Positions 7,540-27,788 of a stretch of DNA of 58,605 bases are shown piece by piece. Source of the stretch: an uncultured Pirellulales bacterium. Lineage in GTDB: Bacteria; Planctomycetota; Phycisphaerae; Sedimentisphaerales; Anaerobacaceae. The first letter of the stretch is position 1. Every line of letters begins with the position of its first letter. A program made the position numbers and the translations under genes. The stretch lies in contig CAZQYB010000001.1 of NCBI GenBank assembly GCA_964597535.1, forward strand, positions 1 through 58,605. The letters are read 5' to 3'. The notes below the pieces were generated by a model that was not told the DNA's origin, did not search any database, and worked only from the letters and a program-made list of their open reading frames with translations.

Positions 7540-7840
7540 TTTTCTATCTCCTAAAAAGAGATTTTATCAAAAACACTAAAACACAAACGGCTTTACGCAT
7601 TTCAAATTAGCACCCGTCTCACTAATTGTCAACTTTTTTATTTTTTCAAAGATGGGCAGCAGGGCACATCGAGTTTGCCGGCAAAACAGCCCTTCGATAG
7701 CTGGTATGGGCAGTTTTATAAAAAGTGGCCGAAATTCGGATTTTTTGTAAACGAAATCTGATTTGGAGTCTCTATAATTACGAATATGTGCCCCGTTGCA
7801 CATCCGAGTTGTGTATAACTCAAGGGCTTTGCAAGACAAA

Positions 7841-8341
7841 ATGGTGCAGAAGATAAGTTTTAAGGCGTTGCTCAACGATTACAGTGCGGCGGTCCTGAAC
7901 ACTGCGATACGGGTTCTGGGCGACGGTCAAAAAGCCCAGGATGTCCATCAGGAAGTGTTTCTGGCAATATGGCGGCGATGGCACAAGTATAACGGCAACA
8001 CAAAATGGGGCGCATATCTGTACCGAACAACCGTCCGAAAGGCAATTGAGTTTGCCAAACGCTCAAGAGCCGAGCGGCTTATAGAGCGGCAGCCGGGAAA
8101 TCCGACTGCGAACGAAAAGCCGGATGGGCGGTTAAGAACTGCCGAACTTCAACAGAAACTCGTCAACTGCCTTGGACGATTGCCAAAACGTCAGGCGGAC
8201 GTGTTCGTGTTATCGAGAATCGAAGGATTAAAACATAACAAGATTGCCGAGGTCCTGGGCTGTTCGCAGGAAACCGTGAGAGTGCATCTTCATCGGGCGA
8301 CGAAGCGATTGACGCAGGAACTCAGCGAATATTTGGGGTGA
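7841..8341 (+). CDS. ECF-type RNA polymerase sigma factor (sigma-70 regions 2 and 4 only)
   Basis: Region 2 is DVHQEVFLAIWRRW. Region 4 HTH is LPKRQADVFVLSRIEGLKHNKIAEVLGCSQETVRVHLHRATKRL. The track ORF begins at TTG 7796; ATG 7841 gives a typical ECF length of about 166 aa. The stop lies 3 nt before the anti-sigma start. Confidence 0.88.
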   Translation: MVQKISFKALLNDYSAAVLNTAIRVLGDGQKAQDVHQEVFLAIWRRWHKYNGNTKWGAYLYRTTVRKAIEFAKRSRAERLIERQPGNPTANEKPDGRLRTAELQQKLVNCLGRLPKRQADVFVLSRIEGLKHNKIAEVLGCSQETVRVHLHRATKRLTQELSEYLG

Positions 8342-8344
8342 GAT

Positions 8345-11300
8345 GTGAATACACATGAAAAAATAAAGGAATTGCTAATCGGCTTTGTTCTTGGCGAACT
8401 CTCCGAACAAGAAGAAAGAAAAGTTAAAACGCACGTCGCTGAGTGTGCCGAATGCAGCAGCGAGCTAAAACGCCTTCGAGCATTACTTGAATGTACCGAC
8501 GAAATGAGGGAATTGTCGGCTGATAATCATTTGTGCCAGTCAGCCAAAGAAACGCTCCTTGCAAGTATAGGCAGCGAGGAGAAGCAACTAGCGCCGAGCT
8601 CGAATATCAGCGCCGGCTGCGTAAGGAGAACAATTATGCAAAGCAGAATAATAAAACTTGCCGCCGCAGCAGTGATAATCATAGCAGTTTGTATTGGGCT
8701 AAAAATGTTTATTCACCCATCGGAGAAGCAGCATGTAGGGGAAACAAGCATTGTAAATGAAGTGGAAACTACGGCCGAAGTGCTCGAAGCTGAACGAAAC
8801 ACGGTCAGACAAATGTTTGCTGCTCGCGACGTTCGCGGTTTGGAGGCGATGCTGCTAAATGCTCAATTTGATGAGAGCAAAGTCCTGGCGGCAAATTATC
8901 TCGCCTTGATTGGCGATTCAGATAGCGTTGAGGTTCTGCAGCAGGTCGATGAAGAGTACGGCGGCACCGAGCCCGCATTTGCAGAAGCGATAGCAGCTAT
9001 TGAAACCAGAATCGCAGATGCCGGCACGGAGGACTCGGAAGGCACGGAAGCCCCGGAAGGCACTTCCGCCCTTGATGGAAACGATACGGCCGTTGCCGAG
9101 GGCAGTGGTCCGGCGGTTGAGCAGGCGCCCGATGAATTGCTTCAATTAGTGCCGGCCAAGAGTATGTTCTGTGTGCGTGTGAACAATTTTGACTACGTTT
9201 TGGGAATGATAGACCAGTATTTGGCCGGCATTTCGCCGATGCCCGCCGGCGCAACAATGTTCGCGCGTATGCAGCTCGTAAGTGCGCTGGGCGACCCGGC
9301 ACTGAATGGCGTCAACACAGCAGGTAGTTTCGCTCTATTCGGGCTGGCGTCACCACCCGAGCCGAACGAAAATCCGTTGGGCAATCTGTTTATAGCGGGG
9401 CTCGTGCCTGTTACCGATTATGCGAAGTTCGTCAGCGATAATCCGAATTGCGAACAGCCCGATGCTAACGGCATCTCCATAATCAAAACCGGCGGCGCTG
9501 TCAACCCGAATAAAAAAATGCTCGCTGCGAAATTAGGCGGCTATGTCCTTCTCAGTTCGGCGAACAATTACGGCAAGCTGGTTTCGATTGCAAAATCGGT
9601 TTCTCAGGGTGTCTCCGGACTTGGCGATTCACTTGATGCTGGCGAGGTCGCAGCGGCAACCAATCAGCCGCTTTGGGCGTACGGTAACGTTCAGCGGGCT
9701 GCGAAAGTATTTGGACCTATGGTTTATGCCCAGCTTGAGCAGATGAAAAAGCAGTTTGAAACTATGAATGCCAGCCCCCAGGGCGGACCCGCACCGGCAG
9801 CAGCAATGAATATGTATTTCGGTATGTTCAATATTCTGACCGAAGAGGTTGAGTTTCTCAGTATCAGTGTCAACCCTAAAGTTGATGTTCTCAATTTGAC
9901 CATAAGTGCTGCAGCGGTGCCAAATACGCTGATGGCCAAGATGTTTGTGGCCGATGCCTCGGACGCAGCCAATACGCTCTTGAATTACCTAAAAGACGGG
10001 GCAATTCTTAATCTTGGATTCAAAATGAACACGCCTTTTATGGAAGAGTTAAGCATGACCGAGTACGACTTTATTGCTTTTCTTAGTGACCAGAATATTC
10101 CTGATGAGACTATCGATAAATTTGAAAACATGGTGGCCGATATGGTATCCTGCGCAGCGGGACCTGGAATAGCCTCTTTTACCTATAACAGCGAAGGATG
10201 GCCGCCTTTCGCAGGTAAGTACATCGTTGCGGTCAAAGACGAGGAAAAATGGAAGCAATTAATTAAAGCAGGGGCCGACCTTTACAATACCGGAGAATTT
10301 GCCGACCTCCATAACAAGATGGGGATCGAGTACAGGTATGAAATTAAGACTGGAGCGGACGACTGCAATGGTGTTTCAATTGATGTTGGCAAACTCGTAA
10401 TGGAACCGAACGACCCTAATTCTATGTATGGCAAGATAATAGACCAAACATACCGTGGTGGATTTGACTTCAGATACGCTATAGTCAATGGCCTCTGGCT
10501 CTGCGTGTTCGGCACGGACTGCAACTCGGCTATGTGCGAGTTGATTGATGAGGTCAAAGCCGGTGGGCCGAAAGAATTGGCATCTGAGATGGCCACGGCC
10601 CTGGAGGCTCTCACCAAAGCAGACAAGGCTGAGTTTGCAGGTACCGTGAATTTCATCCGCTACCTGAATATGGGTGCAAGTATGATGCAAGGTATAGAAA
10701 TAGAAGTTGGTGTAGATGCAGGGCAAATAGGCCCACCAATAGTGCCGGTTGACGTTGAGACCAATAGCAACATAGCGTTTGCCGGCAAGGTAACTAATGG
10801 CAAGATAGCCGTTGAGATTGCCCTGCCTAAACAGCATATATTGGAGATTAAAGCGGGCATTGAGACAATGGGGCAGCAGATGACAGTGATTATGGCGCGT
10901 CAAGAGGCCATCTCGCAGATACCTTCGACCGGCCCTATTATCGGTGAACCTCAGCCCGGTATGCCAACTCTTTACACGGTTGCCCCGGATGTGAACTTGT
11001 CCGATGAGCAAACCCTAATAGAAGGACTGCGTACGTTCGCTGAGATTTCAAACGGACGATATCCAAGCAACCTGAATTTGATGATAACAATGAGAGAAGC
11101 CGGTGAAGCCCTTAGAAAAAGCATCCTTGATGACCAAAACAGAGACCCCAATGTGACGCTGCCAACAAGAGAAGAGCTAATGGCTAAGTTGGCCAATATT
11201 GAAGCAGCTTGTCTGTTCTACGATAAATTGGTCAAGGAAGGCAAGGACGTTGTTTACCGTGGCGATAAGGTCACAACCGAATTTCCGCACGTGATCCTGA

Positions 11301-12361
11301 TGCAGTGGGAAATATCTGAAGACCGGCACAGGGTAATCTTTGCAGATTTAACTATCGAAGACGCTACCGCTCAAAGGCTGGCTGAACTTGAGGCCATGCC
11401 TCTCAATCTTGCGCCAAACGCGATCAAGCCTCAGCCGGCAGATGGAGGAGTCGCAAGCTCAGTTAGCAAACTGGAACTAAGCTGGATGCAGGGATTGAAT
11501 GCAGCCGAGCACAGAGTATATTTCGGCACCAACATTGATGAGTTATCACTTTTGGGCGAGGTCACAAGCCCCAGTTTCGACGAGCTCCCCGAACTCCAAA
11601 CCGACACAACCTATTACTGGCGTGTTGACGAAGTTCAGGCAGATGGTTCAGTTGTAGTCGGCGACGTTTGGAGTTTCAACACAAACAGAATAATGTGCCT
11701 CTGGTGGAAGTTTGATGAGACCAGCGGCAGCATCGTCAGTGATTCTTCCGGCAACGGCTATCACGGCGCAGGGGTGAGGAAAGTCCCAATCTGGGACCCC
11801 GACGGCAGGTTCGGTGGCTGTATCAACTTCGATGAAACGTATGGTGTGTCAATTCCGGGTGATGTCTTTGGCAACCATATCGACAGCGAAATAACCATTT
11901 CGGCCTGGGTCAATGGTGACGCGAACCAGATGAATCACAGTAACGTAATCCTCCAGGCTGGCAGTGGACCCTATGGAAGGCCGTATATCGTCAGCGTGTA
12001 CACGGAGTGGCAAGATGATGGTCGCGTCGAGTTCAAAACAGGACGCGACGAACCAGATGAAGTCAGCTATAATGCCGCCCTTGAGGAATGGGCGGGACAG
12101 TGGAATCACTATGCCTTTGTCAAAAATGCTAATGAAGGCTTCCAGAAGATATACCTTAATGGTGAATTGGTAGCTGAGAAGACCGGCACCAACGCATCGA
12201 TGGCCGGGGTGGGCACTGCCAGAATCGGTATAGCTCCTGACCGATACGGCGACCAATACATAGGCAAGCTCGACGACGTGCGCATATACAACTATGCCTT
12301 GTCCCAGGATGAGATAGGCCGGATTTACGAGGGTACTGACGCTGCTTCGGCGAAAAAATAA
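8345..12361 (+). CDS. giant anti-sigma factor: zf-HC2 N-terminus, one TM helix, ~1200-aa extracytoplasmic region ending in a YYWRVDEV module plus LamG domain
   Basis: The GTG start is 3 nt after the sigma stop. HVAECAECSSEL is the zf-HC2 anti-sigma motif. The TM helix is at about aa 103-122 (IIKLAAAAVIIIAVCIGLKMF). The C-terminus has EHRVYFGT...TTYYWRVDEV...GDVWSFNT, then a LamG-like block ending GKLDDVRIYNYALSQDEI. Confidence 0.8.
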   Translation: MNTHEKIKELLIGFVLGELSEQEERKVKTHVAECAECSSELKRLRALLECTDEMRELSADNHLCQSAKETLLASIGSEEKQLAPSSNISAGCVRRTIMQSRIIKLAAAAVIIIAVCIGLKMFIHPSEKQHVGETSIVNEVETTAEVLEAERNTVRQMFAARDVRGLEAMLLNAQFDESKVLAANYLALIGDSDSVEVLQQVDEEYGGTEPAFAEAIAAIETRIADAGTEDSEGTEAPEGTSALDGNDTAVAEGSGPAVEQAPDELLQLVPAKSMFCVRVNNFDYVLGMIDQYLAGISPMPAGATMFARMQLVSALGDPALNGVNTAGSFALFGLASPPEPNENPLGNLFIAGLVPVTDYAKFVSDNPNCEQPDANGISIIKTGGAVNPNKKMLAAKLGGYVLLSSANNYGKLVSIAKSVSQGVSGLGDSLDAGEVAAATNQPLWAYGNVQRAAKVFGPMVYAQLEQMKKQFETMNASPQGGPAPAAAMNMYFGMFNILTEEVEFLSISVNPKVDVLNLTISAAAVPNTLMAKMFVADASDAANTLLNYLKDGAILNLGFKMNTPFMEELSMTEYDFIAFLSDQNIPDETIDKFENMVADMVSCAAGPGIASFTYNSEGWPPFAGKYIVAVKDEEKWKQLIKAGADLYNTGEFADLHNKMGIEYRYEIKTGADDCNGVSIDVGKLVMEPNDPNSMYGKIIDQTYRGGFDFRYAIVNGLWLCVFGTDCNSAMCELIDEVKAGGPKELASEMATALEALTKADKAEFAGTVNFIRYLNMGASMMQGIEIEVGVDAGQIGPPIVPVDVETNSNIAFAGKVTNGKIAVEIALPKQHILEIKAGIETMGQQMTVIMARQEAISQIPSTGPIIGEPQPGMPTLYTVAPDVNLSDEQTLIEGLRTFAEISNGRYPSNLNLMITMREAGEALRKSILDDQNRDPNVTLPTREELMAKLANIEAACLFYDKLVKEGKDVVYRGDKVTTEFPHVILMQWEISEDRHRVIFADLTIEDATAQRLAELEAMPLNLAPNAIKPQPADGGVASSVSKLELSWMQGLNAAEHRVYFGTNIDELSLLGEVTSPSFDELPELQTDTTYYWRVDEVQADGSVVVGDVWSFNTNRIMCLWWKFDETSGSIVSDSSGNGYHGAGVRKVPIWDPDGRFGGCINFDETYGVSIPGDVFGNHIDSEITISAWVNGDANQMNHSNVILQAGSGPYGRPYIVSVYTEWQDDGRVEFKTGRDEPDEVSYNAALEEWAGQWNHYAFVKNANEGFQKIYLNGELVAEKTGTNASMAGVGTARIGIAPDRYGDQYIGKLDDVRIYNYALSQDEIGRIYEGTDAASAKK

Positions 12362-15306: not shown

Positions 15307-15504
15307 TCATTTTTGCTCTTCTGTCCCTTGCCCCTTCTCTCGCTGAATCGCTTCGTAAACTTCTCTGCGATGAACCGGAATCCGCTTCGGGGCTGTTATG
15401 CCAAGACGAACCTTGTCACCGCGGACATCGACAATAGTAATCTCGACGTCATCACCAATCATAATCGACTCATCTTTTTGCCTGCTTAAAACCAACATTT
15501 TCAA
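15307..15504 (-). CDS. csrA: carbon storage regulator CsrA (RNA-binding translational regulator)
   Basis: The 65-aa ORF reads [51 protein letters not shown], nearly the textbook CsrA sequence. AAGGAG lies upstream. Confidence 0.95.
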
Positions 15505-15815: not shown

Positions 15816-16709
15816 TTAACCTTCTTGTCCGTGTTTTCGCCAATAATTATAGCGTACGGCCAGCCAGTAGCCGGTAATCGAGCCTAAAGTACCAAGAGCC
15901 ACGATTTGCACGGGCAATATAGAAATAACTGCGTTTGGGAAAAAAACTACCGGCCACTCCTGAGCAAGGCGCTGCAACGTGCTTTGTTTGACGCAAGTCA
16001 TTATGGTAAAACCGGTTACGAGAGCACTGGCAATTGTTGGCCAGATATAGTTGGCATCGAGAAATTTTTTGACTATGAAAGCGGCGAGGCCGAACGAAAC
16101 GAATACAGCAAAAACTATCTGCCCGACGGTCGGCTGGGCCACAAGTGAACCTATTCTGACGTCCTGGGCCAATATTCTTATGCAAAATTGAGCAATGAGG
16201 CCGGAGGCGATTAAAGCACTTGCTGTATTTAAGTATATATTTGATTTAGAGTTAGCTTTTTTTTTGGCCTCGTCCAGTTCGGGCTTCGCTCGGATTTTCT
16301 GGCCTGCAAGGACGCCGGCAAAACCGGCAGCCACAATAACCAGCCAGAAAACCGGCTCCCATTTAAGCGCTGCGAAAAGCGCCTCACGCTGTGGGAGGGT
16401 TGAATTCATGCGCATCAGGCCAGCCATATTTCCACATCGCACAGCCCAGATGGCCAGGCCGGACGGTACAGCCAGAATGCCGATTTCTCGGCCGTAAGGC
16501 CAGGCAAGAAAATAGGCCAGCAAGCCCGCCAAGAACGCCAAAGCCGCTAAGATTATTGCGTTGCTGAAACTCACATCACCGGCAAAGAGGGATACGGTGC
16601 CCAACGGCTCAGGTGGTGCCGCTAACGGCCAAGCCCAAAAACCTATCAGTACAACTCCTATGGCGACCGCAGCAGCGATTCGCAGTTTCATTAGCCAAGA
16701 TAGTTCCAC
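15816..16709 (-). CDS. polytopic membrane protein, function unknown
   Basis: The 297-aa ORF has about 8 hydrophobic segments. I recognise no motif. Confidence 0.5.
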   Translation of the reverse strand: MELSWLMKLRIAAAVAIGVVLIGFWAWPLAAPPEPLGTVSLFAGDVSFSNAIILAALAFLAGLLAYFLAWPYGREIGILAVPSGLAIWAVRCGNMAGLMRMNSTLPQREALFAALKWEPVFWLVIVAAGFAGVLAGQKIRAKPELDEAKKKANSKSNIYLNTASALIASGLIAQFCIRILAQDVRIGSLVAQPTVGQIVFAVFVSFGLAAFIVKKFLDANYIWPTIASALVTGFTIMTCVKQSTLQRLAQEWPVVFFPNAVISILPVQIVALGTLGSITGYWLAVRYNYWRKHGQEG

Positions 16710-16839
16710 AACTTAGCTCCTTTAAATTACACAATGATAGGATGCCATCGAAACTAAACCACGTTCGTGACGATACAATCCAACTACTTAGCTGCTAAAT
16801 GGTTGAATGATTCGGTTTTCTTCACCGCTCTGACTTGCA

Positions 16840-17220
16840 TCACTTTCTTTTTTGTTGGCAAGGACAGCCGCCCTTCCTTTTCGTTCTGGATGATGTTTTT
16901 GTCTTTTTCTTCGCCGTTGACGCCTGCCTGGGTTTAGGAGGGGTTTTCGATACTTTAGCGATTTTCTTTACTTTTTCGTCCTTTGGAAGCTGTGCCTGAC
17001 ATTTTTGTAGTTCACTCGTGACTTCAAAAAGGATGCCGGTCGTTGCTTCTGCGTTGTCTTTTAGCTCATCAATTTTGGTTTGTTGGGCTTCCATAGTCTT
17101 TTGCAATTCCAGCATTTCCCGCTCACAGTGGGCTTGCTGATTCAATACGCAACCACTGAGCAGCAGCGTACTTAGTATCAGGCCAACTGCCTGACAGACC
17201 ACAACATTAATACGTTTCAT
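16840..17220 (-). CDS. small coiled-coil lipoprotein with a lysine-rich tail
   Basis: An internal ATG at 17220 gives MKRINVVVCQAVGLILSTLLLSGC, with lipobox LSGC. The upstream part of the track ORF (to 17334) looks non-coding. Confidence 0.55.
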   Translation of the reverse strand: MKRINVVVCQAVGLILSTLLLSGCVLNQQAHCEREMLELQKTMEAQQTKIDELKDNAEATTGILFEVTSELQKCQAQLPKDEKVKKIAKVSKTPPKPRQASTAKKKTKTSSRTKRKGGCPCQQKRK

Positions 17221-17360
17221 AAGAGTTGTCCTTTCACAAAAAAAAGTAAACTTATAGCTTCCCATAAATCGGTAGCTAAGGATAATCACTATAATACCGG
17301 ATTTCTTTTGGGAAAGCAAGCTTTTCCGGGACAATGTGGAGAATGGGGTGCATGTTATGC

Positions 17361-17389
17361 TTGACAGGACACTACAGGTTGCCTATTTT
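17361..17389 (+). promoter_or_regulatory. sigma-70-like promoter inside the leader repeat (distal); identical copy at 22587..22615
   Basis: The sequence is TTGACA - 17 nt - TATTTT. Confidence 0.3.
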
Positions 17390-17440
17390 AAACGCTGGGA
17401 AAATTTATCGCACCCCGTCCGATAATTTAGTGTTTTCTTC

Positions 17441-17470
17441 TTGACGAGGGGGCAGCTAATTTGGTATAAG
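17441..17470 (+). promoter_or_regulatory. sigma-70-like extended -10 promoter inside the leader repeat; identical copy at 22667..22696
   Basis: The sequence is TTGACG - 18 nt (ending TGG) - TATAAG. It would give a 5' UTR of about 325 nt. Confidence 0.35.
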
Positions 17471-17801
17471 GGTATAAGTAAGACTGGTTAAGGATACCGA
17501 TTCTTAGGTGCCAGTTTGTGCAGTTTTTGCCGTTTATGGGCGAAAATTGAGTAAAAAGGTACAGACTTTAGTGAGACCCTTGTGGCTCGGAAGTGGGAGT
17601 TTTGTGCCTCGAAGACGGTTTTTTTTGGATTTTCGTACACATCTGGGCTTGCCGTCTAAACTTGAGTGGGATGACAGACGAACCATCAAAGGTTGTCAGG
17701 GACAGGCGTCAAATATGTGGATGCCTGTTGAAAATAACGGATGTTTTGGCGTTTAGCCGAAAAACGTAGTCATAGTTTAATTTTTGAAAAGGAGGAACGT
17801 T

Positions 17802-20800
17802 ATGTGTAGGAAATTAACAGTCTTGATTTTTGTCGTCTTTATGCTGGGGCTGGTTAGCAATGCTCCAGCGGCTGAGTACCCTGGGAAGTATATGGAATTG
17901 AAAGTGGACTTCGGTTACTCGGATGACCCATCTACTTGGAAACCAGGCTGGCTTCCGTGGGCTTCATGGAACGACGAGGACAGGCATGACGCGAAACTGT
18001 TCGCCAATATTGGCGGTTCGACCATTGATGCGTGCATCAGTGTCGGTCACGAAGGAGACCTGGCCCTGGGGCAGGACTTAGAAGATAATGTTGAGGATGA
18101 GCCTATGTGCAATAGCTTTATGCACTATTATAGGACCCCCATTTGGTACTATGAAGACGGGAAAGCCCCGGGTCATTCCGGTGGCGATATTCTCCTGTTT
18201 CTGACCAGAGAAGGTGGGCTGGAGCCCGGCGAATACTGGCTCTATAGCTACCACAGGCATCCGGCTGACATGAACGACATTCAGAAGATAGAGGTCACGT
18301 GTAGTAAGGATGGACGCTGGCCCAAGGTGGCAGGTCAGTATGCCGAGTACGGGCAGGAGCCGATTGGTGAAGAGTGGCTCACAGGCGATATCAATTGCCC
18401 CAATTATCCCGGCGATCCCTGCGGCGGTGTTTTCCAAATCCACGACGAGGACACTTTTGACATAAACGTACCCATTGAGGGGGACCCTAACAACAATGGG
18501 GACCCTTGCCACGATGCTGACCTTACGCCATCGTTGGTGAAGTTTTACACCGATGGCAGACCCGTTCTCATCAGATATTGGGCGCCGGACGATGGGTCTT
18601 GCGCAGTGCTCAACGCTTTCCGCCTTCTCGGTCCTATACCCAGGGCTGCCTGGGGGCCTTTGCCGCGAAATGGGGCCGAAGATGTTTGCCCGGATGCTAA
18701 TCTCACCTGGCATTCAGGAGAGTACGTAGCATATGACACAGATGCGAATGGCCATGATGTGTACTTCGGCACGGATTTGCGGAATGAGTTTGTCTTGTTG
18801 GATGACGGTTTTGAAGGCGGCATTGATGCAAACTGGACGGCATCCAACTGGTCGCAATACGACGCAAATGGTGATGGGAACTCCCACTCCGGCAGATACT
18901 CGGCCACTCCGGGAAGCGGTGCCGGAACTTTGACCTCTATAGCTTTAGATGCCAGTTATGCACGCTCACTTGAAATAGAATTGTGGCTTCATAAATCTGA
19001 AGAGATAGGGGCTGGAGATATTGACCTGTACTATTCTGACGGAAATAACTGGGACTTTATAGCCGACTTGAATTCTATCGGCCCAAATGATGTGTGGCTG
19101 CATTACACCGACGAGGTAACGGACAGCCAGTATATGGTAAGCACTTTCAAGCTGGAGCTGCGGAGCGACATAAGCAGTGGCGAGGTATTTGTTGACGATG
19201 TTTTGGTGGTCAACACGTGGCCGGTCGGCGACCAGTGGTTCATAGACAATCGAGACCCATGTAACTACGACCCACCCGGTCTTATGGATTTTAACACCAC
19301 TTACTACTGGCGGATTGACGAGGTCAATAATGCTAATCCCAACAGTCCGTGGAGAGGCGGCACCTGGAGCTTTACGACCGAAGACGGAAAAGCTTCTGAG
19401 CCCAGTCCGGCTGACGGCGCCTGGAGTGTGCCGACGACGGACGCGAGCCTTAGCTGGACTGCGTCCTGCCTGGCAATCAAGCACGATGTCTACTTCAGCA
19501 CGAATTTCGCTGATGTCAACACGGGCAGCGACCCCAACTCCGGGGCCGGCCAGGGCCGTCAGACAGAGACCATGTTTGACGACCTACCGATTCTGGAGCC
19601 ATTCACGCGCTATTACTGGCGTGTCGATGAGAAAGGTGCAACTACTTTCGTCAAGGGAGACGTCTGGACGTTCGTAACGGTCGGCGGTGTTTTGATGCAC
19701 TACAAATTCGATGGTGTTGAAGATGCTAACATTGGGGACGCCGGCGACGCAAATCTTGTCACAGACTCTACCGGCAACGTCACGTTCAGGAAGCGGGGTG
19801 ACTATACGTCTCTGACGTACGGGCTGAGTAATCCACTTATCAATCCAGGTGGAACGTCCGCCCACTTCCATCAGTGGGAGGAAGACATTCCCGACGAGGA
19901 TGACATCCAGCACCGAGTAGGCCTGCTTAGAGATGCCGAGGGGCCTGATATTCTCGACCTGGCCGGCGAGGCATACACCATCGAGATGTGGGTCAGGCAG
20001 GATTCGTTTTATTCCGAGAGTGTGGGAGATGATGACTATGCTGCGACGTTGTTCAGGAAATATAACAGGAGTTATGTCCTTGCTATAGGCGAAGACAATA
20101 TAGTTCGCTACGGGCATAGCGGCAGCATAATAACATCGGCGCCGGATGCCAACTATCCCGTAGAGATAGAGCTGGAAAGGTGGTATCACATTGCCGCAGT
20201 CTTTGATTCTACCGACCCCTGTGAGTCGCAAAGGCTCTATATTAACGGCGAACAAGTCAGCGACGGTAATACCTCGTCTCCAAATCCCCTTAATGATGAC
20301 GACTATGTCGGAATCGGGTTTACGAAACAGCCACAGCGGGTTGGCCCCGGGCTTGAACAAAACTTTTTCAACGGTCTGATTGACGAACTGCGGGTGACCG
20401 ATGTGGCTCTTAAACCGAACCAATTCCTGATACGCGGCGGCCCGGGACAGGCCTGGTTCCCCATACCCCAAGACTATTCCAGGGACATCCAGTTTAATGT
20501 GGACCTTAGCTGGAGGCCGGGAGACTATACGGTTGATGTTAATGGGCACGATGTGTACATCGGCACCGACTGGTACGAAGTCAACGAAGCCAACGCCACG
20601 GCCCACCCGAACGTGGGCTACGCCAATCTGGATGTCAACAGCTACGACATCCCGTACTATCTTAGTTTGGACCAGATCTATTATTGGCGTGTGGACCAGG
20701 TCAATGATGTCTGCGAGCCCTACCTGTGGAAAGGCGCTATCTGGCGTTTTACTGTGCCAGAATACATCATCATCGACGATATGGAGGACTACACGCTGAG

Positions 20801-22319
20801 CTATACGGATTATCCAATAAGCGATGATGAAGAGCCATATGGATGGGAGAGCTCCCTGAACGGTTCCAGTTACGGGGGGTCATACCTTAGCCTTGTGACA
20901 CCTACGAATTTTAGTTGGATACCATCTCACGGCGGCGTGCAGACAATGGCGCACGTATATTTTAACGGTGACTACTACTATTCTGAGATTGCAAACCACT
21001 TTGTCCTTGACCCGTGTGATTGGACTTACGGCGGCATAAAGATGTTATCGCTGTGGTTCTATGGCGCGGTGACGAATGACCCTGACGGTCAGACCCAGCA
21101 GATGTATGTGGGGCTGGAAGATGCCGACAGCAATTATGCAGAGGTCAGGTATGGCGACAACGAAGGTGAAGATATGGATAATGTGAAAATTGAGGAATAT
21201 CACCAGTGGAATATGCCGCTAAGTTGGTTTACCACGGCGAATCCCGACTTAGACCTGGACCGTATGAAGAAGCTTTATATCGGCTTTGGTGACAGAACCA
21301 ACACTACGGAGTATGGCAGTGAGGGTGTCGTATATTTCGACGATATCCGGCTGTATCCGCCGACGTGTATTCTTTCGAAAAGAACGTCTCAGTTCGCTGT
21401 ACTCGATTTGGACGACGATTGTATCATTAGCTTCGGCGACGTTGAGCTAATGGCAGAGGATTGGCTCAAGCACGATGTCAATCTTGGCGAAGTAAGCGAG
21501 CCCTGCGATGCCAACCTTGTCGGCTGGTGGAATTTCGATGAGGATGAGGATGATGGCGACGGGAATGTGGTTACCGATTCCAGCGACTACGGCAATGACG
21601 GGACGATAGAGACCAACGATGTTAACGTATGGTGGGTTGCCGGCCACCCTAACGATGTGAACTACGCTCTTGATTTCGACGGCGGCAGGGTCCTGGTGCC
21701 GGATGCAGCAGAGTTGAGGCCGATGCATCAGGTCAGCGTGTGCGCATGGATATACTATTCCGATGAGCAGAGCAGCGGCCGCATAGTGGTCAAAGGTGCA
21801 GATAACAAGGAAACGTACAGCCTCGAAGTCGGCAGTAACGACGAGCTGGTGTTCCTGGTGCGTGACGGCAATGACCCTAATGCCGAAGACTATCCAAAGT
21901 ACGATGCAGAAAGCGGCGAAGATGCTCTCGACCGTGATGGATGGGTTCACGTAGCCGGTACGTACGACGGCAATACGGTAAAGTGCTACATAAATGGTGA
22001 ACTTGCTGCCGAGAGCAACGACCCAAATACAAGTGCGATACCCCTCCTCTCCCAGGACACTAATGATTTGGCGATAGGCAACCAGTCGGATGCTATGGAC
22101 AAGCCGTTTAAAGGTATCATAGACGACGTTCGCGTTTACAACTATGGTCTGTCAGCGGCGGAGGTCGCGTACATTGCCAGCGGTCCCACCGGAATATTCC
22201 TGATGGACTCGTTCGCCAATCTGTCCGACGAGGAGGAAAAGGGTCACAGAGCGGTCAACTTGAGGGACTTTGCTAAACTCTCGGATGCCTGGCTTGAAGA
22301 GGAGTTGTATCCTGAGTAA
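17802..22319 (+). CDS. giant secreted multidomain protein (about 1505 aa): three HDVYFGT/YYWRxDEV modules, two LamG domains, jelly-roll-like domains, dockerin/EF-hand-like segments
   Basis: The ATG at 17802 is preceded by AAAGGAGGA; the track start at 17784 is a TTG inside the SD region. The signal peptide is MCRKLTVLIFVVFMLGLVSNAPA. LamG ends are LIDELRVTDVAL and IIDDVRVYNYGLSAAEV. The Ca-loop-like segment is DLDDDCIISFGDVELMAEDWL. Confidence 0.85.
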   Translation: MCRKLTVLIFVVFMLGLVSNAPAAEYPGKYMELKVDFGYSDDPSTWKPGWLPWASWNDEDRHDAKLFANIGGSTIDACISVGHEGDLALGQDLEDNVEDEPMCNSFMHYYRTPIWYYEDGKAPGHSGGDILLFLTREGGLEPGEYWLYSYHRHPADMNDIQKIEVTCSKDGRWPKVAGQYAEYGQEPIGEEWLTGDINCPNYPGDPCGGVFQIHDEDTFDINVPIEGDPNNNGDPCHDADLTPSLVKFYTDGRPVLIRYWAPDDGSCAVLNAFRLLGPIPRAAWGPLPRNGAEDVCPDANLTWHSGEYVAYDTDANGHDVYFGTDLRNEFVLLDDGFEGGIDANWTASNWSQYDANGDGNSHSGRYSATPGSGAGTLTSIALDASYARSLEIELWLHKSEEIGAGDIDLYYSDGNNWDFIADLNSIGPNDVWLHYTDEVTDSQYMVSTFKLELRSDISSGEVFVDDVLVVNTWPVGDQWFIDNRDPCNYDPPGLMDFNTTYYWRIDEVNNANPNSPWRGGTWSFTTEDGKASEPSPADGAWSVPTTDASLSWTASCLAIKHDVYFSTNFADVNTGSDPNSGAGQGRQTETMFDDLPILEPFTRYYWRVDEKGATTFVKGDVWTFVTVGGVLMHYKFDGVEDANIGDAGDANLVTDSTGNVTFRKRGDYTSLTYGLSNPLINPGGTSAHFHQWEEDIPDEDDIQHRVGLLRDAEGPDILDLAGEAYTIEMWVRQDSFYSESVGDDDYAATLFRKYNRSYVLAIGEDNIVRYGHSGSIITSAPDANYPVEIELERWYHIAAVFDSTDPCESQRLYINGEQVSDGNTSSPNPLNDDDYVGIGFTKQPQRVGPGLEQNFFNGLIDELRVTDVALKPNQFLIRGGPGQAWFPIPQDYSRDIQFNVDLSWRPGDYTVDVNGHDVYIGTDWYEVNEANATAHPNVGYANLDVNSYDIPYYLSLDQIYYWRVDQVNDVCEPYLWKGAIWRFTVPEYIIIDDMEDYTLSYTDYPISDDEEPYGWESSLNGSSYGGSYLSLVTPTNFSWIPSHGGVQTMAHVYFNGDYYYSEIANHFVLDPCDWTYGGIKMLSLWFYGAVTNDPDGQTQQMYVGLEDADSNYAEVRYGDNEGEDMDNVKIEEYHQWNMPLSWFTTANPDLDLDRMKKLYIGFGDRTNTTEYGSEGVVYFDDIRLYPPTCILSKRTSQFAVLDLDDDCIISFGDVELMAEDWLKHDVNLGEVSEPCDANLVGWWNFDEDEDDGDGNVVTDSSDYGNDGTIETNDVNVWWVAGHPNDVNYALDFDGGRVLVPDAAELRPMHQVSVCAWIYYSDEQSSGRIVVKGADNKETYSLEVGSNDELVFLVRDGNDPNAEDYPKYDAESGEDALDRDGWVHVAGTYDGNTVKCYINGELAAESNDPNTSAIPLLSQDTNDLAIGNQSDAMDKPFKGIIDDVRVYNYGLSAAEVAYIASGPTGIFLMDSFANLSDEEEKGHRAVNLRDFAKLSDAWLEEELYPE

Positions 22320-22346
22320 TCAGGTTGTTGTAACTTCGAAGAAGTT

Positions 22347-22386
22347 CGGGGTCTATACCGATTCGGTATGGGCCCCGCTTTTTTTT
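22347..22386 (+). terminator. intrinsic terminator of giant gene 1
   Basis: The hairpin CGGGGTCTATACCG-ATTC-GGTATGGGCCCCG is followed by a T-run. Confidence 0.8.
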
Positions 22387-22522
22387 ACATTATTTCGTGC
22401 GTGACGGGTATTGCGGCTGGAGCGCTCAAAAATCATAATTGGGGCAAAGATATCGCTTGCGGGCTACAACTTGCGTTTTTGAATTGATTATAGTACTTTG
22501 GGAGCAGGGTATAATAGTTACA

Positions 22523-23000
22523 CCGGATTTCTTTTGGGAAAGCAAGCTTTTCCGGGACAATGTGGAGAATGGGGTGCATGTTATGCTTGACAGGACACTA
22601 CAGGTTGCCTATTTTAAACGCTGGGAAAATTTATCGCACCCCGTCCGATAATTTAGTGTTTTCTTCTTGACGAGGGGGCAGCTAATTTGGTATAAGGGTA
22701 TAAGTAAGACTGGTTAAGGATACCGATTCTTAGGTGCCAGTTTGTGCAGTTTTTGCCGTTTATGGGCGAAAATTGAGTAAAAAGGTACAGACTTTAGTGA
22801 GACCCTTGTGGCTCGGAAGTGGGAGTTTTGTGCCTCGGAGTAGGTTTTTTTCTGAATTTTCTTACACACCCGGGCTTGTTGCCTAAACTTGAGTGGGATG
22901 ACAGGCGTCAAATATGTGGATGCCTGTTGAAAATAACGGATGTTTTGGCGTTTAGCCGAAAAACGTAGTCATAGTTTAATTTTTGAAAAGGAGGAATGTT
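22523..23000 (+). repeat. leader repeat, copy 2, upstream of giant LamG gene 2
   Basis: See copy 1. The offset is +5226 for the 315-nt identical block. This copy lacks the 28-nt segment present at about 17678..17705. Confidence 0.95.
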
Positions 23001-26000
23001 ATGTGTAGAAAACTAATTCTGCTGGTTTGTGTTGTTGCAGTCCTGGGTACGGTGGACTTTGCCTACGGTCATACTCGCTGGAATGGCACCGACAGCAATG
23101 ATTTTTGCGACCCGTGTAACTGGAACAATCCTGTATTCAAGGGGGACGAGCTGGCAATGGTTATCGATAAGAGCCCCTGGCGTGACCCTAACAGTGGCGA
23201 TTACACTCCTAACGCTCCCTATTTGTTCCGTTACGCAGACCCCAACGTTTTTTTACCAGGAGATTTTCTGAGAGGGCCGGGATACGATGCAGGCACCCGC
23301 GCTGATTGGTTTATTCGCCCTGGGGGATGGTTCCATTGCGCCAGTGCGTGGCGGATGTGCTACAATGCGAACACGACGGGCTACACGGAGATGACGGGGG
23401 GAACACTTATTTTCGATGGGGTGATTCGGTGCCCACACCACGCGGACGCGAACGCAGCAATAGTGCTTCTCCACGGCGGGACTATTACAGCCCCCAGTAT
23501 CAGCTTCGGACCACAAGGCCTATTTGACTTTGCCGGCGATGGTACGCTTATCCTTGACAGCTATCCTGGTATAATCGCTGATGTCGAAGGTTGGGTAGCT
23601 GCCGAGAATATAACCGCCTATGACGGTGCGGGCACGGTGGTCTATGACTGCAATGTGACGAATCCCGGCAAGACCACGATAACCAGTGAGTTTGGTCACG
23701 CGGCCGCCTGGAACCCAAGCCCTGAATACCTGGCTGAAGATGTGTGTCCGGATGTGAACCTTGGCTGGACGGAAGGAGATAGCGCCGATACGCATACTAT
23801 CTACTTCGGCCCAAGCCCGAATGACGTAAATGTAAGCACCGCTGACCCCTGCGAAGAAGGCTACGACAGCAACAGTTGGAAGCCGCCCGCCCTTGAATTG
23901 GGCAAAACTTACTATTGGCGGATTGTTGAGGTCAACGACGGCAACGAGTGGGTCGGGTCGGTGTGGCAATTTACGGTTGAGACCGGAAAAGCTCGCGACC
24001 CGAGCCCGGGCGACGATATGAAAGGTGTACCTGTAGATGCGAACCTAAGCTGGACGGCATCGTGCCTTGCAGATTCGCACGATATGTACTTCGGCGCCAG
24101 TTGGGCTGATGTAAATAGCGGCGGCGGCGACACGTCTAAAGGCGGTCAGAGCTCACCCTACGACCCGGGCCCGCTTGACGCAGGCACCTGGTACTATTGG
24201 CGGGTGGATGAGGTTGGCGATACGACAATCAAAGGCGACGTCTGGAGCTTCAAGACCCAGGTGGGGGTCTTGCTTTACTACTCGTTTGACGGCAGCGAAG
24301 GTACAGACCTGCCGAGCGAGATTACGTACGCTCCCACAAACATCACGTTTACAAAGTATATTGACCCGAACTATCCTGACCCCTGTGGTATTGAGGACCC
24401 TAACGGTTCGGTGAAGTATAGCGAGCCAAATCCGCTTATCTATACGGATAAGACGTCCGCTGATTTCGAGCCTTTTGCGGGTCTGTATCGACTTGATACC
24501 GGCGACGGCGATATTCTGCGCCTGGACTACCCGCAATACACCATCGAGATGTGGATTTACGTCAACAGCGGCGATTACGATAGCAAGAATATGATGGTGA
24601 TTGGCAAGGGTGAGGGTATGAGCGATGACAGAGAACCCTGGTCGCTTATGCTAAGTGACCTTGGTTCTGACGACGACCTCCGCTGGTACCATAACGGCGA
24701 CAGGACAGAGAATGACGTTATGGATGATAACCTGGATGAATGGATTCACGTTGCCGCAGTTTTTGACCAGAGTCTCCCCACGGCCAACCGGAAGTTGTAT
24801 CTTAACGGTGAAGTAATTGCGGATGATACTGACCACGACACCAATCCTGCTGATAATAATGACCCTGTCGGGATTGGCTGTCAGAGGGATGCCGACGGTA
24901 CATTTGATGATGGTATGTTCTTCGACGGTAGAATTGACGAGCTTCGGATTTTGGATGTGGCGCTTCAGCCAATCCAGTTCCTGTATCCGCGGGCTGCTGA
25001 CCCCAGTCCGGAGGACGGCGAGGGAGACATCGACCCGAACGACCCGAATGACCCGAATGTAGTCCTTAGCTGGACACCATGGGCGGGCGCAAATCAGCAC
25101 GATGTGTACTTCGGCACCAATTACGTGAACGTAAGGGACGGCAATAATCCCAACGTGTACATTGGCCGAGTGGATTCTAACAGCTATATTATCAGCGACG
25201 TGTGTGACCTTGAATACGCTACGACCTATTATTGGCGTATTGACGAGGTCAACGGCAGTGACGCTTATACGGGCGTTGTCTGGCAATTTTTAACCAAGTA
25301 TCAAATCGTTGACCCGAATCTTCTGCTTTGGTACCCGTACGATGAGATGGAAGGCGACTGGGTTTATGACCATTCCGGCCACGGTCTTCACGGCCAGAAC
25401 GGCGACGTCAGCGACGGCTGGGACCCTGATGGGCGGTTCGATGGCTGCCTGGAATTTGATGATAACATGGGTTTTGACCTTGAGAAGCGAACGCTTAGCA
25501 ACATTAACAAGGAAATAACCATAGCCGTTTGGCTGGATGGCTACCGAGAGGAGGATGACAACTGGGTTATTAACGCGGGCGCCGATGGCAACTTCGTAGA
25601 GGTAATAGTTCCTGACCCGGAGGACGACTACGTGTACTGGCGTGCAGGCAACGACTCCAATGACCTGCTGATATGGAATGATGCCACTCCGAGCGACTGG
25701 GTAGGTGACTGGCACCACTTTGCGTTTGTCAAGAATGAGAATGCAGGTACGATGAGCATATACTTCGACGGCGAGGTGGCGAAGTCAAAGTCCGGCACTA
25801 TCAGTTCGCTCTCCAATATCGCGAATACGGATTTCAGTGTCGGCGCGAAGTTAGGTAACTCCGCAGACTACGTAGGTAAGATGGATGACTTGAGGGTGTA
25901 TGACTATGCCCTGTCAAAGAAAGAGATAGCGGGGCTGTTCAGGGGGGGCGACATCGAGCTTGCCTGGGGTCCGAGCCCCTATGATGGCCAGCCGGACGCC

Positions 26001-27788
26001 CGCATGAATGCAGACCTTAGCTGGAAACCGGGAGACTATGCGGATTTGCACGATGTGTACTTCGGCACCGATTTCGACGAGGTCAGCGATGCCAACACTT
26101 CGAACATCGCCGGCTATCCCGACGTCAACTACGCCAGGGTCGATGTAAATAGCTATGACCTCGATACCCTTGATTTAGGCGAGACCTACTACTGGCGTGT
26201 CGATGAGTTTAATGACCCATGCACCTGGAGAGGCAAGGTCTGGCGATTTAAGGTCGCTGAGTTTATTGTTATTGACAATATGGAAGATTACACGGTCATC
26301 GGCGGTGACTACCCAATAGCCGGTTTTGCAGAACCCCGTGGCTGGGATTGTGGGTATAATAACGACACCAGCTCAGCGCTTGGCCTTGTTTACCCCGGCT
26401 CTATATACACCGTAGCGGCACACCGGAGCGACCAGGCGATGAACTATTATTACGGCAACGATGATAATAGCGGCCTGGGCTATTATTCCGAGATTTCAAA
26501 CCATTTCACTATGGACCCGAATGACTGGACTTCCGCCGGCGTCAAGATGCTAACATTATGGTTCTATGGAACCGCTGGTAATGATGCTAATGAACAGGTG
26601 TACGTGGGCCTGGAAGACATCAGTGGCATCGGCAGTTATTCACAGGTTGACTACGGTGACGAAGGCGAAGATATGAATGATATAAAGCTTGCGGAGTGGC
26701 AGGAGTGGAATATCCCGCTAAATAAATTCACCACCGCCAATCCCGGCTTAGACCTGACCTGTATAAAGAAGCTGTATATCGGCTTTGGCGAAAGAGGTGC
26801 TTCGGAGGCCGGCGGGATAGGCTACATGTATTTCGATGATATCCGGCTGTATCAGCCCACTTGCGTTCCCTCGATGAGAAAACCTGACTACGACTTGAAC
26901 GACGACTGCATTGTTGACTTCGGGGACATTCAGGTAATGGCAGAGGACTGGCTCAAGAGCGATGTCAATCTTGGCGAAGTAACAAAACCATCAGACGCTA
27001 ATCTCGTCGGCTGGTGGATGCTCGATGAGGGCAGCGGTGGTATCACTTACGATTCCAGCGGCAACGACAATGACGGTGTGATAGAGACGATAGAGACCAA
27101 CGTGGAGTGGGTTACCGGGCACAACGACGTGAACTACGCTCTGGACTTTGCCGGCGGCAGGGTCCTGGTGTCGGATGACGGGGACACACCAGAGCTGAAC
27201 TCGATGAGCCAGTTGACCGTATCCGCGTGGGTCAATTACTCCCAAACACAAGAGCAGAGTTCCCGCATAGTTGTCAAAGGTGCAGACAACGCGGAAAAAT
27301 TCAGTTTCGAGATTAATAATGATGACGAGTTCGTGTTCCTTATACGTGACGCTAATAAGCCCAAAGACCACAAGTATGATGTGAACGGCATTGATAAGCT
27401 CGAGCACGATGAATGGATTCATTTAGCCGGGACGTACGACGGCAACAATGTACTGAGCTGCTATGTGAACGGCGAACTCAGGGATCGCGCCGAGGACGTA
27501 AATCTTATAGAAGGTCTTTGCCGAGACCCCAACTATGGTCTGGCAATAGGTAACCGGTCGGACGCCACGAGCCGTGCTTTTACAGGTACCATAGACGACG
27601 TTCGTGTTTACAACTCTGCACTGTCTCCGGAGGAAATTGCATACATTACGACGGACAGCACGGGCATCATGGCACTGGAATCGGTTGCCGATATCTACAA
27701 GGAGGCGCGCGGAAAAGGAGTAATCAACCTCAAAGACTTTGCGGTGTTGGCGGACACCTGGCTCGAAGAGAAGCTGTATCCTGAGTAA
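23001..27788 (+). CDS. giant secreted multidomain protein (about 1595 aa), paralogue of 17802..22319 with a different N-terminal third
   Basis: It has the same SD and ATG context. The signal peptide is MCRKLILLVCVVAVLGTVDFAYG. There are four HD[VM]YFG/YYWR[IV][VD]E modules and three LamG-like blocks ending RIDELRILDVAL, KMDDLRVYDYALSKKEI and TIDDVRVYNSALSPEEI. The Ca-loop-like segment is DLNDDCIVDFGDIQVMAEDWL. The C-terminal ~600 aa are colinear with gene 1. Confidence 0.85.
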   Translation: MCRKLILLVCVVAVLGTVDFAYGHTRWNGTDSNDFCDPCNWNNPVFKGDELAMVIDKSPWRDPNSGDYTPNAPYLFRYADPNVFLPGDFLRGPGYDAGTRADWFIRPGGWFHCASAWRMCYNANTTGYTEMTGGTLIFDGVIRCPHHADANAAIVLLHGGTITAPSISFGPQGLFDFAGDGTLILDSYPGIIADVEGWVAAENITAYDGAGTVVYDCNVTNPGKTTITSEFGHAAAWNPSPEYLAEDVCPDVNLGWTEGDSADTHTIYFGPSPNDVNVSTADPCEEGYDSNSWKPPALELGKTYYWRIVEVNDGNEWVGSVWQFTVETGKARDPSPGDDMKGVPVDANLSWTASCLADSHDMYFGASWADVNSGGGDTSKGGQSSPYDPGPLDAGTWYYWRVDEVGDTTIKGDVWSFKTQVGVLLYYSFDGSEGTDLPSEITYAPTNITFTKYIDPNYPDPCGIEDPNGSVKYSEPNPLIYTDKTSADFEPFAGLYRLDTGDGDILRLDYPQYTIEMWIYVNSGDYDSKNMMVIGKGEGMSDDREPWSLMLSDLGSDDDLRWYHNGDRTENDVMDDNLDEWIHVAAVFDQSLPTANRKLYLNGEVIADDTDHDTNPADNNDPVGIGCQRDADGTFDDGMFFDGRIDELRILDVALQPIQFLYPRAADPSPEDGEGDIDPNDPNDPNVVLSWTPWAGANQHDVYFGTNYVNVRDGNNPNVYIGRVDSNSYIISDVCDLEYATTYYWRIDEVNGSDAYTGVVWQFLTKYQIVDPNLLLWYPYDEMEGDWVYDHSGHGLHGQNGDVSDGWDPDGRFDGCLEFDDNMGFDLEKRTLSNINKEITIAVWLDGYREEDDNWVINAGADGNFVEVIVPDPEDDYVYWRAGNDSNDLLIWNDATPSDWVGDWHHFAFVKNENAGTMSIYFDGEVAKSKSGTISSLSNIANTDFSVGAKLGNSADYVGKMDDLRVYDYALSKKEIAGLFRGGDIELAWGPSPYDGQPDARMNADLSWKPGDYADLHDVYFGTDFDEVSDANTSNIAGYPDVNYARVDVNSYDLDTLDLGETYYWRVDEFNDPCTWRGKVWRFKVAEFIVIDNMEDYTVIGGDYPIAGFAEPRGWDCGYNNDTSSALGLVYPGSIYTVAAHRSDQAMNYYYGNDDNSGLGYYSEISNHFTMDPNDWTSAGVKMLTLWFYGTAGNDANEQVYVGLEDISGIGSYSQVDYGDEGEDMNDIKLAEWQEWNIPLNKFTTANPGLDLTCIKKLYIGFGERGASEAGGIGYMYFDDIRLYQPTCVPSMRKPDYDLNDDCIVDFGDIQVMAEDWLKSDVNLGEVTKPSDANLVGWWMLDEGSGGITYDSSGNDNDGVIETIETNVEWVTGHNDVNYALDFAGGRVLVSDDGDTPELNSMSQLTVSAWVNYSQTQEQSSRIVVKGADNAEKFSFEINNDDEFVFLIRDANKPKDHKYDVNGIDKLEHDEWIHLAGTYDGNNVLSCYVNGELRDRAEDVNLIEGLCRDPNYGLAIGNRSDATSRAFTGTIDDVRVYNSALSPEEIAYITTDSTGIMALESVADIYKEARGKGVINLKDFAVLADTWLEEKLYPE

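Follow-up and report, generated by a model that had tools for sequence, protein, structure and literature searches.

An important question raised by this locus is why non-coding DNA should be far better conserved than the coding sequence that it precedes. The DNA concerned is a stretch of 58,605 nucleotides (nt) from an uncultured Pirellulales bacterium, placed by GTDB in the Sedimentisphaerales (GenBank assembly GCA_964597535.1, contig CAZQYB010000001.1, positions 1 to 58,605 of the forward strand), which as a whole is referred to as the window. It carries two tandem genes for giant secreted LamG proteins, i.e. gene A (17802..22319; 1505 amino acids (aa), with a signal peptide and Laminin_G_3 domains) and gene B (23001..27788; 1595 aa, likewise with a signal peptide, and with three Laminin_G_3 domains), both on the plus strand, as are all features described below unless stated otherwise. 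The upstream regions of the two genes share a perfect repeat, which a first-pass annotation had attributed either to strong selection on a structured 5′ untranslated region (UTR) or to gene conversion confined to the leader. Our comparisons make it probable that the identity stems from recent non-reciprocal recombination within a shared 5′ cassette and not from exceptional purifying selection.

According to a repeat finder run within the window, the block upstream of gene A (17296..17611, copy A) equals that upstream of gene B (22522..22837, copy B, downstream of the gene A terminator) over 316 nt with zero mismatches. The mismatch-free match reported earlier is thus borne out and extended by one base, and a chance origin of such a repeat in 58.6 kb is impossible; these two copies of the cassette are the only ones in the window. 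On the 3′ side of the block, a gapped alignment shows about 60 nt at 82–85% identity, followed by a 28-nt segment (17673..17700) that is present in copy A and in the related locus L031 and absent from copy B and from locus L010. This segment has GACAG direct repeats at both sides. The final 101 nt before the start codon (17701–17801 versus 22900–23000) again differ at a single position only (17798, C/T), so that the earlier description of these last ~100 nt as identical, including the Shine–Dalgarno sequence, holds for the ribosome-binding site (RBS) AAGGAGGA, which is found in both copies, and fails at one base.

Similarity ends shortly after translation begins. In copy A the RBS (17789–17796) is followed by the ATG at 17802 and the first codons MCRK (RBS and start together 17789..17813), and the counterpart in copy B has the RBS at 22988–22995 and the ATG at 23001. 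Identity stops at about +12: it amounts to 11/12 up to that point, then to 52% (+13..+60) and finally to about 22%, i.e. the random level, which agrees with the collapse described in the first-pass annotation. Its statement that the N-terminal parts of the proteins are unrelated is likewise confirmed, since the two proteins can be aligned only from residue 430 of A onwards (A residues 430–1505, about 1100 C-terminal aa, 41% identity), with the corresponding coding DNA being 70–79% identical. Gene B is therefore a paralogue of gene A over this C-terminal part only.

Histories of leaders and genes

Whether selection or recombination has kept the two leaders alike can be judged by comparison with orthologues, paralogues and sister strains. 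The orthologue of gene A in the related contig L003 is 92% identical in amino acid sequence, 93.8% in nucleotide sequence and 90% at fourfold-degenerate sites. The leader of this orthologue, however, is only 71% identical to leader A when the two are aligned globally, its 40-nt blocks varying between 17/40 and 38/40, and overall the leader of gene A shows 71–76% identity to the leaders in L003 and L012 versus 100% to that of gene B. A constrained sequence would be expected to match the conservation of synonymous sites or to exceed it; leader blocks that lie far below the level of fourfold sites have therefore been replaced. This difference speaks against strong selection as the cause of the identity, one of the two explanations offered at the outset. 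The same disparity is seen within the window itself, where leader segments of 100% and 99% identity stand against paralogous coding DNA of 70–79%.

Moreover, leader A is a mosaic. When it is compared segment by segment with its relatives, different blocks turn out to have different nearest relatives. The 3′ domain (17701–17801) is 99% identical to that of L010, which precedes an unrelated gene, and only 79% identical to that in the leader of its own orthologue. The middle segment (17612–17672) is 89% identical to L010 and 82% to copy B, and the first 40 nt of the UTR (17479–17520) reach at most 45% with every relative and 100% with copy B. Contig L012 is homologous to the window only from 17438 onwards, immediately ahead of the −35 box, and has a different upstream neighbourhood. 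Tract boundaries lie at 17296, 17611, 17701 and about +12 of the coding sequence.

Over 16.6 kb, the sister-strain contig L002 shares 99.9% identity with the window, and 12 of the 17 single-nucleotide polymorphisms (SNPs) that separate the two fall into the two leaders. The same five SNPs occur at 17356–17392 and at 22582–22618, a pattern that could also be produced by the collapse of repeats in short-read assembly. Furthermore, two B-like genes, L042 (977) and L043 (1725), both from the metagenome-assembled genome (MAG) GCA_054868845.1, begin almost exactly with the signal peptide of B (MCRKLILLxCLVAVLG) and are preceded by two other leader variants, one with a UTR of about 370 nt, the other with a UTR of about 210 nt that lacks the hairpins H1 and H2 described below. 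In these genes leader type and gene type are uncoupled in sequence, and the point in the window at which an A-type leader meets a B-type signal peptide therefore represents a recombination boundary. Taken together, the discrepancy between leaders (71–76%) and coding sequence (94%), the mosaic structure and the SNPs in L002 favour the gene conversion proposed in the first-pass annotation over the selection that it had named alongside, at least over selection acting alone.

Could the identity be in part an artefact of assembly? A short-read assembler may traverse a collapsed graph edge twice when two copies are nearly identical, and several observations would fit this: L001 and L002 are metagenome contigs, the related contigs are short-read assemblies, two of them (L033 and L034) break inside the repeat, and copies that are alike within assemblies and differ between them are also what collapse would produce. 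If the window is a short-read assembly too, a few true differences between its copies could be masked. Against this, four independent assemblies agree on the block next to the unique flank of A, and in the middle segment the differences between the copies are preserved, which shows that the assembler kept them apart where they differ. Collapse can create neither a repeat nor the discordance between leader and gene histories. We therefore regard even a partial artefact as unlikely.

A cassette shared by genes for secreted proteins

Related leaders also occur outside the window. We searched metagenome and genome contigs with a degenerate pattern consisting of the 3′ hairpin GTTTTGGYNTTTRGCC, 25–45 arbitrary nt and the RBS AAGGAGGA. 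By construction, the hairpin and the RBS are invariant among the matches, which makes their conservation circular, whereas signal peptide, promoter and the rest of the UTR are observed independently of the pattern. The RBS biases matches toward gene starts, yet not toward any particular peptide such as MC(R/K)KL. Among the 27 metagenome contigs that match, 25 have the pattern in front of an open reading frame (ORF) that starts 5–8 nt downstream and encodes MC(R/K)(R/K)L..FLISFVLVLGL. Seven genome contigs match as well, five of them in MAGs assigned to Phycisphaerae, Sedimentisphaerales or 'Pirellulales' and with the same protein start; the other two, from Leptospira and Caedimonas, lack a start codon and are probably chance matches. 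The random placement that had been put forward as the mark of a dispersed repeat without gene association is thus not what we find, since 25 of 27 metagenome and five of seven genome matches precede the same signal peptide.

All in all, promoter, UTR, AAGGAGGA and an MC(R/K)KL signal peptide occur together at no fewer than 20 other loci, which belong to metagenomes and MAGs of Phycisphaerae/Sedimentisphaerales and encode diverse secreted proteins, most of them with LamG domains. Homology extends from the promoter to the ATG in L003, L012, L007 (=L004), L008, L010, L020, L022, L027 and L031, and the contigs with the closest homologues of A (L003 with 91% and L004 with 70% identity) carry diverged copies of the leader. 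Of five downstream proteins that were scanned, three are LamG proteins (one of which also has a PEP-CTERM tail), one is DUF1349-like and one is without a Pfam match; the likeness of gene A to the genes in L010 or L031 is limited to the signal peptide. Two cassette genes in tandem on one contig are often found elsewhere too, as in L003 (leaders at 29–467 and 5900–6055), in L005 (1–109 and 2272–2365) and in L012 (reverse orientation, 6754–6315 and 883–729). The leaders of these tandem pairs share the 3′ domain only, and full identity is therefore specific to the lineage of the window. An exact 23-mer from the identical block had no match in the genome or metagenome contigs searched, and a literature search for this lineage in connection with LamG or conserved leaders returned nothing relevant.

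The cassette contains a conserved σ70-type promoter, P2 (17441..17470), with a −35 box TTGACG (17441–17446), an 18-nt spacer and an extended −10 box TGG-TATAAG (17462–17470); its counterpart in copy B (22667–22696) lies in the identical block. An 8-nt tandem duplication, GGTATAAG/GGTATAAG (17463–17478; 22689–22704 in copy B), doubles the −10 box, and relatives have a single copy. About a dozen distinct related loci feature TTGACG-N17/18-TATAA(A/G) 284–405 nt upstream of the ATG, usually with TGG or TGT preceding TATAA(A/G), and on the basis of this cross-locus conservation P2 is predicted to be the promoter in use. It resembles a housekeeping σ70 promoter rather than one served by an extracytoplasmic function (ECF) sigma factor. 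ECF promoters have an AAC-containing −35 and a CGT-type −10 element instead of TTGACA and TATAAT. No ECF-type elements are seen at the conserved promoter, which reads TTGACG-18-TGGTATAAG and to which the search for such motifs was confined.

The region immediately upstream of P2 (17385..17440) contains an ATTTT..AAAAT inverted motif, CCGATAATT and a T-rich, UP-like tract. It is partly common to the family: L008, L022, L027 and L031 align over it at 39–49%, and similarity at the family level runs out about 100 nt ahead of the −35 box. A second promoter-like match from the promoter scan (17361..17389, TTGACA-17-TATTTT) has no counterpart among the relatives, its −10 box is changed from TATTTT to CATTTT in L002, and it is probably non-functional. 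Of the two σ70-like promoters noted earlier, it is hence the downstream one that is kept across the family. If P2 is used, the identical block as a whole cannot be called a leader, as had been done, since about 180 nt of it would consist of the promoter and the DNA before it, which leaves only about 130 nt for the transcript.

In the model that we propose, the repeat would be the 5′ expression cassette of two paralogous genes that stand in tandem and encode giant secreted LamG proteins. In 5′ to 3′ order, this cassette would comprise about 145 nt of upstream DNA, the T-rich tract with a strong housekeeping-type promoter, a UTR of about 320 nt with several hairpins, AAGGAGGA and four codons that would form the start of a Sec-type signal peptide. 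It would be a module common to a multigene family of uncultured Phycisphaerae/Sedimentisphaerales, where it precedes many different secreted proteins and most likely provides them with common high-level transcription and with common control of mRNA stability or translation, a function that we infer from its anatomy and from its recurrence in other genomes. Gene conversion would operate between the direct repeats, which are 5.2 kb apart, with wider exchange among members of the family, and the 3′ boundary of the conversion tract would lie about 12 nt inside the coding sequence.

One assembly, L001 (JGI 3300028837), differs from the window before both genes. It lacks 199 nt before gene A (17269..17467; L001 junction 9666/9667) and 200 nt before gene B (22494–22693; L001 junction 14692/14693), and the short junctions read CCCATAAA/AAGGGTAT and GATTATAG/AAGGGTAT, i.e. 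they have the same right side. The absent piece consists of 28–29 nt of locus-specific sequence and of the first ~172 nt of the block, which take in the −35 box and part of the first −10 box, so that both deletions stop inside the first copy of GGTATAAG. Four other assemblies have the long form. Several routes to this loss were considered and discarded. Recombination between 21-nt direct repeats, which are 81% alike and spaced 189 nt apart, would remove 189 nt and produce a hybrid repeat, which is not seen, and conversion between A and B does not fit left flanks that are unrelated. The absence reflects either an assembly error or a precise, possibly programmed loss of the promoter module before both genes. 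The ~200-nt segment is not a duplicate of the leader that follows it, as a comparison of the two scores 17 against a shuffle mean of 17.9.

These data also raise the question of a small promoter-carrying mobile element, comparable to a miniature inverted-repeat transposable element (MITE) or a Correia element, that inserted independently before both genes. Such an element would account for the presence or absence of about 200 nt at both loci with an identical right junction and in an otherwise identical background, and promoter-bearing miniature elements are known (PMC3575422). However, neither the block nor the ~200-nt segment shows terminal inverted repeats, a target-site duplication or microhomology, and similarity between the two segments is only about 60% over their left 28–29 nt. 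None of the loci fetched has another copy of the segment's 5′ part, its 3′ part, i.e. the promoter, sits at the ancestral position of all family members, and copies are not placed irrespective of genes. We thus consider a mobile element highly improbable.

Somewhat less remote, and compatible with the cassette, is a promoter module that acts as a switch, i.e. is excised and re-inserted precisely before both genes in a manner resembling phase variation. L001 shows no SNP against the window over about 15 kb around gene A and yet has lost its 199 and 200 nt at both promoters, with both deletions taking the −35 box and stopping at the same base. On the other hand, the short form is known from one assembly only, in which an error is possible, no recombinase gene is found among the neighbours and no repeats usable as recombination sites were found; such a switch therefore seems quite unlikely. 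An invertible promoter finds no counterpart in flanking inverted repeats or a neighbouring recombinase, and the orientation is the same in all assemblies. As a separate observation on L001, 42 of its 48 differences from the window on the B side cluster within 268 nt (32168–32435) inside a sodium:solute symporter gene (31173–32819), a cluster that looks like an imported recombination tract.

The leader as a candidate RNA element

From the position of P2, a 5′ UTR of about 320 nt is predicted for gene A (17479..17801), with homologous UTRs in relatives, and one that is 27 nt shorter for gene B (about 22705–23000). RNAalifold, applied to nine full leaders, predicts the hairpins H1 and H2, a long-range pairing and two hairpins in the last 110 nt. 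H1 (17521..17549) is formed by CAGUUUUUGCC and GGCGAAAAUUG around a 7-nt loop; it is predicted in four of five relatives folded singly, with compensatory changes at two pairs. In H2 (17557..17609), AGGUACAGACUUU would pair with GGGAGUUUUGUGCCU and enclose an inner hairpin, and the perfect identity between A and B stops 2 nt past it. The block comprising H1 and H2 is 79–93% identical within one subfamily, and H2 is absent from L007 and L022. A/U-rich arms (17541–17557 and 17619–17635) flank H2, and a U-run in the 3′ arm (17619–17626) is complementary, across H2, to the A-rich arm at 17541–17557, with better pairing in copy B.

The 3′ domain (17691..17767) would fold into an extended hairpin with an outer stem GGUUGU/AUAACG, whose 5′ strand has its source in the 28-nt segment 17673–17700, and an inner stem GACAGGC/GCCUGU; a second hairpin (17741–17767) would consist of AUGUUUUGGC-GUUUA-GCCGAAAAACGU, and the possible long-range pairing joins 17657–17665 with 17770–17779 in the predicted fold. 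The domain is recognizable in 28 sequences. Among 14 distinct versions of it, 95% of cells are able to pair versus 31–50% in slid controls, with shuffled controls pairing equally well, and double changes occur in four pairs versus 2.4 expected. The hairpins are hence a plausible candidate structure compatible with the alignment. Rfam yields no relevant match up to E=10 in 16000–24000 and none up to E=0.1 in seven related loci, and in the window a tRNA alone reaches the gathering score. The leader is thus a candidate family from an uncultured lineage that is not catalogued in Rfam, which makes for modest novelty. Parts of the UTR recur at many related loci and are probably functional.

Does this imply that extreme purifying selection on a long structured riboregulator, e.g. 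a riboswitch or a protein-binding leader, keeps the copies identical? The recurrence of UTR blocks, i.e. of H1–H2 in the subfamily and of the 3′ domain in the 28 sequences, and hairpins compatible with nearly all alignment cells and accompanied by a few compensatory changes would fit such a view. Selection of this kind is, however, difficult to reconcile with an orthologous leader that is less conserved (71–76%) than the fourfold sites of its gene (90%), with about 180 nt of the identical block lying upstream of P2, where they would not be RNA at all, with covariation no higher than in a shuffled control, with the lack of Rfam matches in the window and in the seven other loci and with the absence of the H2 block from L007 and L022. 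As an explanation of the identity it is thus very unlikely, and recombination in the shared cassette remains the reading that we prefer.

Several candidate mechanisms for the leader were tried and rejected. An attenuator or terminator at the U-run is not supported by the terminator scan, which has no terminator in either leader, and H2 ends at 17609, with the U-run starting at 17619. For a leader peptide, an 82-codon ORF (17508–17756) comes into question; it runs across the 28-nt indel, which disrupts it in copy B, and small ATGs, including one inside H1, are not conserved among relatives. Control by CsrA was suggested by GGAUG at 17718 and 17737 and by a nearby csrA gene, and the GGA motifs are not kept in other family members. 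No sequestering expression platform was detected in the leaders. With respect to the start codon, TTTCGTACACAT (17631–17642) is 92% complementary to ATGTGTAGGAAA (17802–17813, start codon and codons 2–4), and L007 shows a matching double change in this pairing (GCACAT/ATGTGC). Sequestration of the start codon was dropped as a candidate, since chance alone would give about 0.4 pairs of this kind and relatives pair only partly.

Parts of a potential cis-regulatory RNA would be the extended GUUGUU/GACAGGC hairpin, the UUUUGGC hairpin and the A/U-rich spacer before the RBS. That the 3′ domain is an undescribed cis-regulatory RNA co-ordinating the translation or stability of an entire secretome regulon in Sedimentisphaerales, and/or that the upstream promoter module is a switch removed precisely and simultaneously at several genes, for which L001 would be the example, appears doubtful on present evidence.

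A search for an orthologue of gene B with its N-terminal 600 aa found none that is close, the best match being 62% identical over a partial protein, and what follows A in L003 and L012 is the gene of another family member, with 29% identity confined to the N-terminus. This is the first of a number of points that weigh against recombination in a shared, functional cassette. Transfer may accordingly have gone from A to B or in the reverse direction. Repeat collapse in short-read assembly could inflate both the exact identity and the number of SNPs shared by the leaders of L002. The use of the promoter and the start site are predictions, and the conservation of the family is partly circular, the hairpin and the RBS being the search pattern. 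Shuffled controls pair as well as the real 3′ domains do (94.7% versus 94.9%), so that covariation is not significant and a function at the level of RNA is a candidate one. Finally, the absence of the ~200-nt segment before both genes in L001 is unexplained by recombination.

Relation to known systems and to neighbouring genes

Concerted evolution of 5′ ends is known from genes for surface proteins, such as babA/babB and the hop genes of Helicobacter pylori, opa of Neisseria and vlp/vsp of Mycoplasma, the last of these with a conserved 5′ UTR and signal peptide. As in these families, the 5′ non-coding DNA and the start of the signal peptide are kept in the cassette genes, mature parts diverge, tracts are discrete and histories are discordant. 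In contrast to them, nothing points here to antigenic variation driven by a host, to invertible elements or to silent cassettes, a separate promoter precedes each gene, and the organism is an uncultured and probably free-living planctomycete. Long stabilizing 5′ UTRs of strongly expressed genes for envelope or secreted proteins, on the other hand, are found in E. coli ompA, in the aprE leader of Bacillus subtilis and in the leaders of S-layer genes. The cassette is similar to these in that a strong promoter is combined with a long leader that has 5′-proximal hairpins, an A/U-rich stretch, a consensus RBS and an exported protein; it is, however, unrelated to them in sequence, and a stabilizing role of its own would be putative. 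With riboswitches and other leaders in Rfam it shares its location between promoter and RBS, a length of several hundred nt and conserved hairpins, but unlike in riboswitches the block of the leader that is most conserved in the subfamily is dispensable in other members.

A further parallel is provided by putative mobile promoters, i.e. highly similar upstream non-coding DNA in front of different coding sequences in one genome (Nijveen, Matus-Garcia and van Passel 2012, PMC3575422). Such reused promoters are common to related genomes and often without an Rfam match, and it was left open whether they reflect selection or recent duplication (PMC3575422). The leaders in the window resemble them in being up to 100% identical over more than 100 nt. 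In the region from −150 to −50, for which that survey specified at least 80% identity over at least 50 nt, 17652–17752 is 82–99% identical to copy B, and the 3′ domain of L010 is 99% identical. The survey was restricted to non-paralogous genes, and its strict criteria would exclude partial paralogues such as A and B with their 41% identity over about 1100 aa. The unit described here also differs in being larger (about 500 nt, of which the UTR accounts for about 320 nt, and extending into the first signal-peptide codons) and in that homologous exchange among family members would take the place of an unidentified route of mobilization. The cassette thus corresponds to two known phenomena, promoter reuse (PMC3575422) and the concerted evolution of the 5′ ends of surface-protein genes; it belongs to no Rfam family and is neither a MITE nor an attenuator, and its promoter is neither invertible nor of the ECF type.

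For genome scans this means that non-coding DNA may outdo coding DNA in conservation by way of recombination, and that comparison with orthologues separates the possible causes. A portable module of promoter, ~320-nt leader, RBS and MC(R/K)KL would mark a large family of giant secreted proteins, most of which contain LamG domains. With its help the secretome could be found in MAGs and co-regulation predicted, and it is a candidate for a strong expression cassette, with its leader being a candidate RNA motif outside Rfam.

As to the genomic context, gene A ends in a strong intrinsic terminator (22347..22387; a 14-bp stem followed by a T-run in the terminator scan), and gene B therefore needs its own promoter. 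Immediately upstream of leader A lies a gene for a 126-aa protein in the opposite orientation, and a gene for a 63-aa protein of the CsrA family (about 15307–15498, minus strand) is located two genes upstream. Further upstream, an ECF sigma factor gene (7796–8341, plus strand) is followed by a gene for a 1338-aa protein (8345–12361, plus strand) that has a zf-HC2 anti-sigma motif at its N-terminus and a Laminin_G_3 domain at its C-terminus. Homologues of A are LamG proteins from MAGs of Planctomycetota. Proteins of the family end in a similar tail (..NLRDFAKLSDAWLEEELYPE; encoded at 22200–22319 and 27670–27788 in the window and also present in L022 and L026), and A, B and the proteins of L022 and L026 contain repeated ..TYYWRVDEVN.. 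modules; both may be common modules for anchoring or assembly.

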